From an uncultured Eubacteriales bacterium (lineage in GTDB: Bacteria; Acidobacteriota; Aminicenantia; Aminicenantales; UBA8522), in NCBI GenBank assembly GCA_964551885.1, contig CAZKEW010000002.1:1-42929 (forward strand): 42,929 bases of DNA, given 5' to 3'. Position 1 is the stretch's first letter. Every line of letters begins with the position of its first letter. Positions 6,242 through 42,929 of this stretch are shown here, piece by piece. The translations under genes were made by a program, and so were the position numbers. The notes under the pieces were generated by a model. It was given only the letters and a program-made list of their open reading frames with translations, was not told where the DNA came from and searched no databases.

Positions 6242-7937
6242 TTGACCTTCCTCCTTTCTCCTCTTTTAAATTATGGAGGAGCATTTCTTTGGCATTCTGG
6301 AGCGAGGTTGGGGTGATATGGCTTCCTGAGAGGAGGCGGGAGATCTCTGTGACTCTCTCCTCGAAACTCAACTCTTTAACCGTTGTGTAGGTCCGTTCCT
6401 TTTCCATCTTTTTTTCGATTCTGTAGTGATGAGGAGCAAAAGAGGCGATCTGAGGCAGATGGGTGATGCAGATAACTTGATGGCGCTTGGATAATTCCAG
6501 GAGCTTTTCGGCGATGCACTCCGCTGTTTTTCCGCCAATGCCGGAATCAATCTCGTCGAAGATGAGCGTTCTTAACCCGCCCTTTTCCTTGCCGATGGTC
6601 TTTAAGGCCAGCATGATCCGGGAAAGTTCGCCTCCTGAAGCGATTTTCCGCAGAGGCCTGAGCTCCTCACCCGGGTTGGGGCTGATCAGGAACTCGACAT
6701 CATCCAACCCGGAATCCCGGACTTTTTCTATCTCCAGCGACGCGGGCGAGTCGGTTGCGATTTTGACCTGGAACCGGGCCCGCTTCATCCCGAGGAGAGC
6801 GATCTCCTTTTCCACTTGGGTTTCTAATTGTTTCGCGCCTTCCCTGCGAAGACGGCTGAGTTTTTCTGCGTTTGTCTGATATAGGCCAAAGGCCCGGCTG
6901 ATCTCTGCTTCAAGGTCGGCCAGCCTCTCTTCGCTCTGGAGAAGGTCACTATGCTCTTGCTTGATTTTGGCGAGATAAAGGAGGATGGCATCGATGCTCT
7001 CGCCATACTTTCTTCTCAGCTTTTCTATCAGGCTGAGCCTTTCCTCCAAATCCTCCAGCCTCTCCGGTCCGAGATTTTGTTTTTCCTTGAATTTAATCAG
7101 AGAATCAGAAAGCTCTCGGACGGCGATAGTCGATTGATTCAAGGATTCATTGAAGGCCTGGAAGCCCTGATCGTAACGGCTGAGTTCCCGGACGTTTTCT
7201 TGAAGCTTGGCCAAACCCGCGGAGACGGAATTCTCATTGAGATAGGAAAAATCCAGGGCTCTTTCCACCAGCACCGCTATTTTCTCGGCGTTCTTGAGGA
7301 TGTTCCTCTCGGCCAGGAGCTCCTCCCATTCTCCCGGCTTGAGCTGGGCGCTTTCGATTTCCTTGATCTGGTAGCTCAAAAAATCGAGCCGCTGTTCTCT
7401 TTCCCTTTTTCTTGTTTCCAGGTCGTTTTTTTGCCGGACAAGATGGCGGAGTTTTTGAGCTTGCCCAGAAATATCTTCTCTCTTTTGGACCAGGTCCAGG
7501 TACTGGTCGAGATAATGGAGATGGTTTTCAAGCTGCAGAAGAAAGACATGGTCATTCTGACCATAGATATCGACAAGGGCGGGGTTGATCTCTTTTAGTT
7601 TCTTTATCGGGACGAGCACGCCGTTGACATAAGCTTTTCCGGAGCCCTCCTGAGTGATTTGCCTCTGGAGGAAAATTTCGCCTTCTTCAAGGGGGGCAAA
7701 TTCTTCGGCTGTCTGGTTTTCCGGAGGGATGCGGAAGACTGCCTCGATGGTGGCTTCCCTCATTCCTGTTCGGATGAGCTCCGGCGAGGCTTTTTCCCCC
7801 AAGACGAGCTTGATTCCGTCGATGATGATTGATTTTCCCGCGCCCGTCTCCCCGGTGAGGATAGAAAACCCTTGTTTAAAATTTAGCTCCAGGTCTTCTA
7901 TGGTGGCTAAATTTTTGATGCGGAGAGAATATATCAT
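6207..7937 (-). CDS. recN: DNA repair protein RecN
   Basis: 576 aa. It has an N-terminal Walker A (LTGETGAGKSIIIDGI), a long coiled-coil middle region and a C-terminal signature (ASGGELSRIMLALK, LIFDEIDSGIGG). Confidence 0.93.
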   Translation of the reverse strand: MIYSLRIKNLATIEDLELNFKQGFSILTGETGAGKSIIIDGIKLVLGEKASPELIRTGMREATIEAVFRIPPENQTAEEFAPLEEGEIFLQRQITQEGSGKAYVNGVLVPIKKLKEINPALVDIYGQNDHVFLLQLENHLHYLDQYLDLVQKREDISGQAQKLRHLVRQKNDLETRKREREQRLDFLSYQIKEIESAQLKPGEWEELLAERNILKNAEKIAVLVERALDFSYLNENSVSAGLAKLQENVRELSRYDQGFQAFNESLNQSTIAVRELSDSLIKFKEKQNLGPERLEDLEERLSLIEKLRRKYGESIDAILLYLAKIKQEHSDLLQSEERLADLEAEISRAFGLYQTNAEKLSRLRREGAKQLETQVEKEIALLGMKRARFQVKIATDSPASLEIEKVRDSGLDDVEFLISPNPGEELRPLRKIASGGELSRIMLALKTIGKEKGGLRTLIFDEIDSGIGGKTAECIAEKLLELSKRHQVICITHLPQIASFAPHHYRIEKKMEKERTYTTVKELSFEERVTEISRLLSGSHITPTSLQNAKEMLLHNLKEEKGGRSNEPGSTRRRKL

Positions 7938-40974: not shown

Positions 40975-41817
40975 ATGTACGACGAGGATTTCCTCGATTC
41001 GAAAAATCTAAAGATCTATCTCAACCAGATCTCCAAATTCCCTATGTATTCAGAAGAAGAAGAAAAGGAGCTTGGCCGGCTGATTCAGCAGGGAGACAAG
41101 AACGCCATCAAAAAGTTTGTCGAAGCAAACCTCCGATTTGTCGTCTCATATGTCAAAAAGTACCGGGGGATGGGCCTGACCATGCTTGACCTCATCAACG
41201 AGGGTAACCTGGGTTTGATCGAGGCTGCCAAACGGTACGACCCCAACCGCAATGTCAGGTTCATCTCTTATGCCGTCTGGTGGATCAGGCAGGCGGTCAT
41301 CCATGCCCTGACCCAGTCCGCCCGCATCTACAACCTTCCGCAGAAGATGTCCGACCAGATCTCGCAGATGAAGAGGAAAGTCTCCCAGCTCAAGGCAGAA
41401 CTCGGCAGAGAGCCGACGAGGGAGGAGACCGCCCGGAGCATGGGGATCAGCGAAGAGGATGTCGAGGACCTGCAAATCTTGGCCGAGAAGGATGTCTCTC
41501 TCAGTGACAGGCTGACGGACAGCGAGCTTGAGGTCGAGGGAAAGATTGAAGACAATGCTTCGCCTTCGGTCGAATACCAGATCGTCAAGTCCTCCATCCA
41601 GCATCAGATCAGGGATATTTTAGGGGAGCTGGATGAGAAAGCGGCTCTTGTGCTAAAATTAAGGTTCGGGCTGGATGATGACCGGCCGCAGACCCTTCAA
41701 GAGATAGGGAAGAGGCTGAATTTGACGAGGGAGCGAATCCGGCAGATTGAGCAGAAAGCCATGAGGAAGCTCGCCCGGTCTCATAATCTCCAGCAGCTTA
41801 GAGGTTATTTGAACTGA
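40975..41817 (+). CDS. Sigma-70 family sigma factor, compact RpoD/RpoS-like (regions 1.2-4.2, no region 1.1)
   Basis: 280 aa with region 2 (LRFVVSYVKKYRGMGLTMLDLINEGNLGLIEAAKRYDP...FISYAVWWIRQAV), region 3 and region 4.2 (TLQEIGKRLNLTRERIRQIEQKAMRKL). No RpoH box is present. Confidence 0.9.
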   Translation: MYDEDFLDSKNLKIYLNQISKFPMYSEEEEKELGRLIQQGDKNAIKKFVEANLRFVVSYVKKYRGMGLTMLDLINEGNLGLIEAAKRYDPNRNVRFISYAVWWIRQAVIHALTQSARIYNLPQKMSDQISQMKRKVSQLKAELGREPTREETARSMGISEEDVEDLQILAEKDVSLSDRLTDSELEVEGKIEDNASPSVEYQIVKSSIQHQIRDILGELDEKAALVLKLRFGLDDDRPQTLQEIGKRLNLTRERIRQIEQKAMRKLARSHNLQQLRGYLN

Positions 41818-42560: not shown

Positions 42561-42603
42561 TTGTCATCGCGAGCGAAGCGTGGCGATCTCATGCGCCAAC
42601 CGA

Positions 42604-42632
42604 TTGAAATTCAACTCGATTCATGCTAAATT
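42604..42632 (+). promoter_or_regulatory. Candidate tRNA promoter TTGAAA-17-TAAATT
   Basis: The -35 is at 42604..42609 and the -10 at 42627..42632, 12 nt upstream of tRNA position 1. Confidence 0.45.
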
Positions 42633-42644
42633 ATGGGCGCCTGC

Positions 42645-42679
42645 TCCTCGGTAGCTCAATCGGCAGAGCGGGTGGCTGT
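42645..42679 (+). tRNA. tRNA-Asn(GUU) 5' exon (positions 1-35); 3' exon lies beyond the window
   Basis: TCCTCGG-TA-GCTC-AATCGGCA-GAGC-G-GGTGG-CT-GT gives an acceptor 5' strand, U8, a D-arm with G18G19, an anticodon-stem 5' strand, C32 U33 and G34 U35. The U1 and UCCUC start and the overall sequence parallel E. coli tRNA-Asn (UCCUCUGUAGUUCAGUCGGUAGAACGGCGGACUGUUAA...). The third anticodon base is not visible. Confidence 0.8.
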
Positions 42680-42929
42680 ATAAATGCAGCTTCCACGAGA
42701 AATCGTGGCTGAAAAATCGGGTGAATTCAGGGAAGCCTGCCTTCTGCATCAGGCGGAAAATGGTAACCCTGAGCCAAGCCCTGGCCGGATCAAAATGGTC
42801 AGGGAAGGTGCAGAGACTAGAGCTTATGCTCGTACCCTGAAGAAATTTCAGGGGAAGCGCCCGACACCCCACCTCCAGGTTTCTGGAGCGGGTGAAGAGA
42901 TAGTCCAAGCCCAGAAGAAATTTTGGGGC
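42680..42929 (+). ncRNA. Group I self-splicing intron (IC3-like), truncated by the window end
   Basis: P1 forms as exon GGCUGU / guide GCAGCU (42686..42691), with a U.G pair at the splice site. P2 is CCACGA-GAAA-TCGTGG (42693..42708). The core strings are TCAGGGAAGCC (42727..), CCCTGAGCCAAGCC (42767..42780), GAAGGTGCAGAGACTA (42804..42819) and GGTGAAGAGATAGTCCAAG (42891..42909). These closely match the Anabaena tRNA-Leu intron strings CUCAGGGAAACC, CCUGAGCCAAGCC, GGAAGGUGCAGAGACU and GGGUAAAGAGAGAGUCCAAU. Confidence 0.85.

Follow-up and report, generated by a model that had tools for sequence, protein, structure and literature searches.

A group I intron inside the anticodon of a tRNA-Asn(GUU) gene of uncultivated Aminicenantes: a probable self-splicing element

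Can a transfer RNA (tRNA) gene that is interrupted inside its anticodon still give a normal tRNA? This question is raised by the right-hand end of a stretch of DNA of 42,929 nucleotides (nt), called the window below (GenBank assembly GCA_964551885.1, contig CAZKEW010000002.1), which is deposited as an uncultured Eubacteriales bacterium and placed by GTDB in Aminicenantia (Acidobacteriota). A preliminary description, made from the letters alone, had read the last 285 nt as the first 35 nt of a tRNA-Asn followed by a group I intron. Here we describe the anatomy of this gene, the family and helices of its intron, and the conservation of its exons, as well as its distribution and synteny. The window very probably ends in a tRNA-Asn(GUU) gene that is split between U35 and U36 by a self-splicing intron of group I that is 255 nt long. 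This intron is real and probably functional, and it has probably not been described among the bacterial tRNA introns.

A split tRNA-Asn gene and the fold of its intron

All the parts that had been named for the 5' exon, from the acceptor strand to the anticodon loop, are in place (Table 1). The 5' exon is nearly invariant among relatives, and compensatory changes are found in the acceptor, anticodon and T stems. ARAGORN in its default mode found no tRNA in the window, as is to be expected of a gene that is split and whose 3' half lies beyond the window. The covariance-model search that had been proposed as a check identified the intron clearly. The Rfam family RF00028 matches 42670-42927 of the plus strand with 86.3 bits (E 8.7e-21; gathering score 50 bits), and the match covers the whole model (positions 1-253 of 253). 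It is the sole Rfam family match in the 42.9-kb window.

The 3' part of the gene was read from relatives. The exact 31-mer at the window end (42899-42929) was searched in metagenome contigs of the Joint Genome Institute (JGI) and matched 83 contigs with many different flanks. A host-independent pattern of the intron core was also scanned in species-representative genomes and matched 52 of them. The window's own contig is not among these matches. Of the 83 + 52 related contigs, all that reach far enough continue with NCTTG and then, across the 3' splice site, with TAACCACTAGGTTGCAGGTTCGAGTCCTGCCCGAGGAGCCA or a close variant. In these relatives the terminal G of the intron lies 5 nt past the window end and is followed by T36. 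GGTGG and CCACT form the anticodon stem, with a G27.U43 pair, and the 3' exon goes on with the variable loop, the T arm, the acceptor strand CCGAGGA, G73 and an encoded CCA. The preliminary description had foreseen the terminal G, T36-AA, the variable loop, the T arm and CCGAGGA, and all of these are found, but it had expected the intron to end 30-80 nt beyond the window rather than 5 nt. It had also expected CCACC as the anticodon-stem strand; the strand is CCACT, and the stem is completed nevertheless.

The identity of the tRNA follows from these relatives. The third anticodon base is T, so that the tRNA is Asn and not Asp, His or Tyr. The U1-A72 pair and the G73 discriminator, which are features of E. 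coli tRNA-Asn, are present, as the window has T at 42645 and related 3' exons end in CCGAGGA-G-CCA. When the 5' exon of the window was joined in silico to the consensus 3' exon, with U36 supplied by the relatives, ARAGORN called tRNA-Asn(gtt). The intron-aware mode of ARAGORN, which had been suggested as a further check, recognised 109 related loci as tRNA-Asn(gtt) and placed the intron after nucleotide 35; the introns are 247-255 nt long in the examples printed. The expected spliced junction would join GGGTGGCTGT to TAACCACTAGG, that is, CUGU to UAACC.

A feature at the very end of a contig might be an assembly artefact, in which a tRNA fragment was wrongly joined to a foreign intron. Nine Logan contigs of the same strain, which encode the identical DnaC-like protein upstream, break 0-65 nt past the stop of that gene, and no 3' exon was obtained from them. 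These breaks fall at a palindromic motif (42564-90) or at a divergent haplotype, upstream of the tRNA and not within it. Independent contigs (83 + 52 + 6), which come from many samples and assemblers and include closed chromosomes, show the same exon-intron-exon arrangement. Thus, an assembly artefact is effectively refuted by the independent contigs.

The fold was analyzed with two alignments. Set 1 consists of 46 distinct pre-tRNAs without an open reading frame (ORF), selected by an exact match to P9 and aligned with MAFFT. Set 2 consists of 50 more diverse sequences, namely the genome representatives and copies from other phyla, from which an insert encoding an HNH protein, where there was one, was removed in silico from L1, the loop of P1. 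RNAalifold on set 1, without any group I model, recovered the acceptor, D and T arms of the tRNA together with P1, P2, P3, P4, P5/P5a, P6a, P8 and P9; at 25 pairs, double changes preserve the pairing. An explicit structure including the P7 pseudoknot was also tested, and partners slid by 1-3 columns and 500 shuffles served as controls. In set 1, 98.9% of 4554 cells pair, against 33-49% for the slid partners, and 26 pairs have compensatory changes, against 4-12; none of the 500 shuffles reached any of the five measures. Set 2 gave 98.0% against 33-47%, and 54 pairs with compensatory changes against 17-28. In this set covariation extended to P2, P7.1, P8, P9.0 and P9 as well as to three stems of the tRNA (acceptor, anticodon and T). 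The compensatory changes in the tRNA stems indicate that the tRNA is under selection, and therefore the intron must be removed.

The helices of the conserved core, which comprises the P3-P7 pseudoknot, the P4-P6 domain and P8, pair in 91-100% of cells. P3, P5a (4 covarying pairs), P6a and P8 covary; P6 and P7 are invariant and P4 is invariant or nearly so. All six pairs of P7 form in 100% of copies without variation, and P7, which makes a pseudoknot with P3, is presumed from its family to be the guanosine-binding helix. In P1, the exon GGCUGU pairs with the guide GCAGCU and U35.G stands at the splice site (T42679.G42686) in 46/46 and 50/50 distinct relatives, as had been claimed for a wobble at 42679. 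Six pairs of P1 are invariant, and the seventh (42680:42685) switches between A-U and G-C in ~40% of copies. L1 of the window has 4 unpaired nt and no ORF insert. The three hairpins that had been noted for their GAAA-type caps are P2, the P7.2-like hairpin (loop GAAAT) and P9. The Rfam consensus has no counterpart of the two hairpins between P7 and the 3' strand of P3, which it treats as an insertion. Covarying pairs number 6-8 in P7.2 and, in the diverse set, 3 in P7.1. Two copies from other phyla (loci L147 and L149) have a single longer hairpin at this position. The P9.0 strand AAG pairs with CTT right before the terminal G, beyond the window, and shows 3 covarying pairs in the diverse set.

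Table 1. Features at the right-hand end of the window (positions of the window; covarying pairs counted in the alignments described in the text)
Feature	Positions	Strand	Details
dnaK, dnaJ, MerR/HspR-like regulator, sigma-70 family factor, DnaC/IstB-like ATPase	37463-42560		gene string adjoining tRNA-Asn
Promoter-like site	42604-42632	+	TTGAAA 42604-09, N17 spacer, TAAATT 42627-32; consensus scan
tRNA-Asn(GUU) 5' exon	42645-42679	+	tRNA positions 1-35; sequence reading, ARAGORN on joined exons
5' exon, acceptor strand	42645-51	+	TCCTCGG, then TA; T at 42645
5' exon, D arm	42654-57 / 42666-69	+	GCTC, D loop AATCGGCA with G18G19, GAGC
5' exon, anticodon-stem strand	42671-75	+	GGTGG, preceded by G26
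5' exon, anticodon-loop part	GT at 42678-79	+	CT, GT = C32 U33 G34 U35
Group I intron	42680-42929	+	first 250 of 255 nt; last 5 nt NCTTG and 41-nt 3' exon beyond the window
P1	42674-80 / 42685-91	+	exon GGCTGT (42674-79) and A42680 with T42685 and internal guide GCAGCT (42686-91)
Open 82-codon frame	42684-42929	+	ATG in L1 at 42684, open to window end
P2	42693-42708	+	hairpin CCACGA-GAAA-TCGTGG; 100% paired; 3 covarying pairs in diverse set
P3 5' strand	42717-42723	+	TCGGGTG; pairs with 42858-42864; 100% paired, 2 covarying pairs
P4-P5-P5a domain	42727-42772	+	P4 42727-32/42767-72, P5 42737-39/42761-63, P5a 42742-45/42755-58
P6 and P6a	42773-42809	+	P6 42773-74/42808-09; P6a 42779-87/42796-804, 7-9 covarying pairs
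P7 5' strand	42813-42819	+	G42813, bulged A42814, GACTA 42815-19; pairs with TAGTCC 42901-06
Two extra hairpins between P7 and P3'	42820-42853	+	P7.1-like GAGC-TTAT-GCTC 42820-31; P7.2-like 42835-41/42847-53
P3 3' strand	42858-42864	+	CGCCCGA
P8 and P8a	42865-42894	+	P8 42865-69/42890-94, 4 covarying pairs; P8a 42873-78/42883-88, 3
J8/7, P7 3' strand, P9.0 5' strand	42895-42909	+	AAGAGA; TAGTCC 42901-06; AAG 42907-09
P9	42910-42927	+	hairpin CCCAGAA-GAAA-TTTTGGG; 5 covarying pairs in diverse set

The intron-bearing locus in Aminicenantes and other phyla

The 52 species-representative genomes that matched the core pattern are mostly Candidatus Aminicenantes (class Aminicenantia, Acidobacteriota), and two closed Aminicenantes chromosomes are among them (OY970261.1, OY969696.1). 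A few of the matched bins are labelled WOR-3, Elusimicrobia, Desulfobacteraceae or Desulfaltia. All 52 matches lie in tRNA-Asn(GUU) at the identical site. A homologue of the DnaC/IstB-like ATPase gene adjoins the intron-bearing gene in 86 loci, with 99% to ~76% amino-acid identity among the matches shown. Because of this neighbour, it can be said that the locus is syntenic and that the intron is long-standing in Aminicenantes. Many loci from metagenome-assembled genomes named 'uncultured Eubacteriales bacterium' or 'Clostridia' are near-identical to and syntenic with Aminicenantes loci (L093, L094, L097, L098, L101, L115, L117-L119, L122, L126, L136, L140, L144). These names are probably placeholders and not real taxonomy.

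Copies were also found in bins labelled as other phyla (Aerophobetes, Euphemobacter and WOR-3) and in one that is unlabelled. They too are tRNA-Asn(GUU) genes with the same insertion site, and RF00028 scores 74-87 bits in them. They stand in unrelated genomic contexts, and the stems of their tRNAs partly differ in sequence. Since these copies occupy the same site in unrelated contexts, the element is specific for tRNA-Asn and has spread over several phyla. In two Aerophobetes-labelled loci (L145/L146, 1-2093), the intron-bearing tRNA-Asn lies directly downstream of a 23S-5S ribosomal RNA (rRNA) operon. There the tRNA may be co-transcribed with the rRNA, unlike the stand-alone promoter context in Aminicenantes. 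No relatives were found among plasmids and phages by blastn, nor among viral contigs by a pattern scan, and there is thus no sign of phage carriage in these collections.

A near-consensus promoter had been noted 12 nt upstream of the tRNA, and both the consensus scan and the relatives bear this out. The promoter-like site ends 12 nt before tRNA position 1 and has TG just 5' of the -10 element (extended -10). At related loci, 85 of the 91 distinct upstream sequences keep the architecture TTGnnn-N17-TAnnnT, ending 12-13 nt before tRNA position 1, despite divergence of the remaining spacer. Judged by its sequence and its conserved architecture, the promoter is presumably used.

The gene string upstream of the tRNA ends with the DnaC/IstB-like ATPase. 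This protein has an N-terminal CxxC...C.C motif, and the start of its gene overlaps the stop of the sigma gene at 41817. A small imperfect palindrome, TCATCGCGAGCGAAGCGTGGCGATCTC, follows the gene at 42564-42590, and three short-read assemblies break within it. Four other assemblies that encode the identical DnaC-like protein diverge there into another hairpin-like sequence, GGACATGTTCCTAATTTCTGAATTAGGTACGTGTCC. Because assemblies with the identical protein diverge after the gene, the intergenic region, as compared with the ends of L001, L002, L004 and L007, is polymorphic among very close strains. We also considered the motif at 42564-90 as a dispersed repeat and rejected this, as it is single-copy in the window and otherwise occurs only in close relatives.

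A putative HNH gene in the P1 loop and an open frame across the ribozyme

About eleven copies carry an insert of 303-306 nt in the P1 loop (L042, L052, L054, L055, L057, L074, L076, L088, L114, L119, L100). The insert encodes a protein of ~100 amino acids with CxxC...HH...CxxCH motifs. This putative HNH ORF starts 0-25 nt past the 5' splice site, and in several copies a Shine-Dalgarno-like purine run stands ahead of it (L114, L148, L149). The ORF was also seen in L145-L150; the L054 copy lies on the minus strand, with its intron ~1200-1290 nt from the locus end. Sequence matches of the protein in PDB are weak. The family of the HNH ORF forms 951 clusters in a large protein collection, and all members that were looked up, four of them from bins of other phyla, lie in tRNA-Asn introns. 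Remnants of 44-123 nt or in-frame internal deletions of the ORF are found, for example, in L056, L059, L108, L113, L127, L140 and L142. Among the closest relatives by DnaC-like protein, L074 (99% over a 79-amino-acid fragment) and L076 (92%) carry the ORF; L018 and L075 (91%) as well as the window are without it. The patchy presence and the decay intermediates look as a cycle of gain and loss of a homing endonuclease would predict. The HNH protein would most likely act by cutting intron-less tRNA-Asn genes and thereby drive homing. The preliminary description had noted that the intron appears to lack a homing endonuclease. This holds for the window's copy, which has no endonuclease domain and either lost the HNH ORF or never had it, but close relatives carry the ORF in the P1 loop.

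It had also been stated that the intron has no credible ORF. No endonuclease domain is present, but a frame of 82 codons is open from the ATG in L1 to the window end. This frame is 78% identical, without gaps and in register, to the C-terminal tail of the HNH ORF in related copies (P0001). Within the Aminicenantes clade, the ORF of most HNH copies runs on across the guide, P2 and the entire ribozyme and ends at a TAG in the 3' exon. ORFs that reach into core intron sequence are described as an exception in the review literature. The frame is open in 9/11 HNH copies, in 20/37 related ORF-less copies and in 7/42 copies of the other ORF-less clade.

The 250 nt might therefore serve as both ribozyme and coding sequence, with the frame from 42684 onward encoding either a peptide with a function or a functional C-terminal domain for the endonuclease. 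Besides its openness in the HNH copies and related ORF-less copies, and its gapless match to the P0001 tail, the frame has 1.2 stops on average, compared with 6.2 and 2.3 for the two alternative frames, and the lengths in that clade are mostly multiples of 3. We nevertheless consider this dual function distinctly unlikely. In other phyla the HNH ORF stops in P2-P5 and gives proteins of 113-130 amino acids, and L100 stops in P2 and L057 in P6. Some copies are open only through compensating frameshifts that alter the peptide, and several ORF-less copies have stops in the P7.1 loop. Furthermore, the conservation of the 'peptide' is fully accounted for by conservation of the RNA. The early stops, the frameshifts and the ends in other phyla do not support a selected coding sequence, and the open frame is probably an ORF remnant shaped by RNA constraints rather than a gene. 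A 95-amino-acid ORF on the minus strand over the intron was also considered; it is spurious, and a database look-up gave no record of it.

Splicing, significance and comparison with known introns

Several points weigh against the reading of a functional, self-splicing intron with an HNH endonuclease in some copies. The window stops 5 nt short of the intron's end and contains none of the 3' exon, and the gene was completed from relatives, the closest of which (L075) is 89% identical over 42561-42929. P1, P4, P6 and P7 never vary and are thus backed by conservation and not by covariation; this invariance fits a catalytic core and a guide that is tied to the invariant anticodon loop. The HNH protein matches the Pfam family HNH (PF01844, model positions 1-46 of 47) with 20.2 bits, which is 1.2 below the cut-off of 21.4. 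In L132 (CAWHBV010000009.1, ~7400-7700), a syntenic copy with the same DnaC-like gene upstream has a deletion of ~65 nt, from just past the 5' splice site through the guide, P2, the P3 5' strand and the P4 5' strand. Judged by what is missing, this copy is probably dead and should be unable to splice; a further tRNA-Asn gene may be needed in its genome, or the deletion may stem from an error of assembly. Splicing itself is inferred from sequence, and the intron-bearing gene is at most a candidate for an essential gene.

A further tRNA-Asn gene in these genomes, if there is one, and the L132 copy would suit the idea that the intron-bearing gene is a non-functional relic, in which the intron no longer splices and an intron-less tRNA-Asn gene elsewhere does the work. 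This idea is very unlikely. The exons and the ribozyme core are nearly invariant although the neighbouring protein has diverged to ~76% identity, the stems of both tRNA and intron keep pairing through compensatory changes, and the promoter is conserved. In addition, ARAGORN found no intron-less tRNA-Asn in 814 kb of related DNA, which was sampled around the intron.

A functional intron would work as follows. A sigma-70-type promoter belonging to the tRNA-Asn gene would drive its transcription. Within the precursor RNA, the six nucleotides that end the 5' exon, GGCUGU, would pair with the guide GCAGCU to form P1 and place U35.G at the cleavage site. The ribozyme, built from the P3-P7 pseudoknot, the P4-P6 domain, P8 and P9, would bind free guanosine in P7 and cleave after U35. 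The terminal G of the intron would then take the place of the guanosine, and ligation of the exons would yield CUGUUAA, an ordinary anticodon loop of tRNA-Asn. In Aminicenantes, the gene with its intron has probably long been passed on by vertical descent, at a conserved locus beside the DnaC/IstB-like gene, and the HNH ORF in some P1 loops may drive homing into intron-less tRNA-Asn genes.

It is also conceivable that splicing in the cell needs a protein helper, either a host factor or an intron-encoded maturase, and not RNA alone. Some group I introns are known to need such proteins (Hausner et al. 2014), the Asn intron has extra peripheral hairpins, and an ORF reads through the whole ribozyme in some copies. 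Most copies, including that of the window, are conserved without an endonuclease ORF, and their core is closely like that of tRNA-Leu-type introns. Moreover, the Azoarcus tRNA-Ile intron self-splices efficiently in vitro, and tRNA-Leu introns also self-splice in vitro. We therefore regard dependence on a helper as unlikely and favour self-splicing by the RNA.

The group I introns of bacterial tRNAs serve in textbooks to show how old and how mobile introns are, and only four host tRNAs have been described. The present intron, which is conserved at a syntenic locus across an uncultivated class and also present in several other candidate phyla, adds a fifth host and a new insertion point inside the anticodon. 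Its copies form a natural series, from those with an endonuclease through decaying ones to those without an ORF, in which the homing cycle can be studied. A far-reaching extension, which we hold to be unlikely as a whole, is that the intron together with its HNH gene makes up a mobile element that crosses phyla and is specialised on the anticodon of tRNA-Asn, that the intron-bearing gene is the sole tRNA-Asn gene in Aminicenantes and that the HNH ORF is dual-coded with the entire ribozyme and ends in the 3' exon. If the gene were indeed the sole one, a whole class of bacteria would need self-splicing of a ribozyme to translate any of its Asn codons. The intron also matters in practice. The intron-bearing tRNA-Asn genes went unreported by ARAGORN in default mode, and tRNAscan-SE 2.0 is, according to its paper, not designed for the detection of group I introns. 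Because of this, the genomes appear to lack tRNA-Asn, and this apparent absence affects completeness checks of genomes that are based on tRNAs.

The hosts named as credible for bacterial tRNA group I introns are Leu(UAA), fMet, Ile2(CAU) and Arg(CCU). No report of an Asn host was found in the literature searched, which included a review on group I introns of bacteria, the 2025 paper of an intron database and the papers on tRNAscan-SE 2.0 and tRNADB-CE, a search that mostly did not extend to subscription journals. The remark in the preliminary description that Asn is not a classical host thus fits the searchable literature. What is new here is the host tRNA, the insertion point 35/36, the P7.1/P7.2-like module and the HNH gene in L1. 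The intron is easily found with Rfam and may already sit unremarked in automated annotation. 'Group I introns' of 22-49 nt, which have been claimed for cyanobacterial tRNA-Arg, Gly and Lys, are far too short for group I ribozymes and are not comparable.

The closest likeness is with the tRNA-Leu(UAA) intron, which is inserted between positions 34 and 35. Both are anticodon group I introns of bacterial tRNAs, ~250 nt long, and form P1 from anticodon-loop nucleotides. The core strings CCTGAGCCAA and AGGTGCAGAGACT are shared, as they agree letter for letter with the core stretches of primers g and h, published for the trnL(UAA) intron (10/10 and 13/13 nt). These two primers occur together in 63 papers. 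The Asn intron differs in its host tRNA-Asn(GUU), its insertion at 35/36, the extra hairpins between P7 and P3' and the HNH ORF in some L1 loops. The IC3 introns of Azoarcus tRNA-Ile(CAU) and Agrobacterium tRNA-Arg(CCU) are alike in their anticodon-loop location, the lack of an ORF and the U.G pair at the splice site. They are located after the third anticodon base, and the P7 and J6/7 sequences of Azoarcus are similar to those of the Asn intron. The Azoarcus intron has 205 nt and is without peripheral elements, whereas the Asn intron has 255 nt, lies inside the anticodon and bears P5a, P6a, P7.1/P7.2-like and P8a extensions.

An endonuclease is also known from the Synechocystis tRNA-fMet intron; it is of the PD-(D/E)XK type and not HNH. 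The host tRNA and the insertion site of that intron (Bonocora and Shub 2001, cited in Hausner et al. 2014) are also different. Phage introns of subgroup IA resemble the Asn intron in having hairpins between P7 and P3' and small endonuclease ORFs (HNH or GIY-YIG in the phage introns) looped out of the ribozyme. P7.1/P7.2 are typical of this subgroup and are not known as a feature of the compact IC3 tRNA introns. However, the phage introns reside in protein-coding genes, and the core of the Asn intron is of the tRNA-Leu type. P7.1/P7.2 elements have been described as class-defining peripherals. The core, of the tRNA-Leu/Ile/Arg type, and the anticodon location agree with IC3, to which the intron had been likened, and the P7-P3' hairpins, which are not known from IC3 introns and which lie outside the Rfam consensus, depart from it. 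In summary, we call the Asn intron IC3-like, with an added P7.1/P7.2-like module, and assign it to no formal subgroup.

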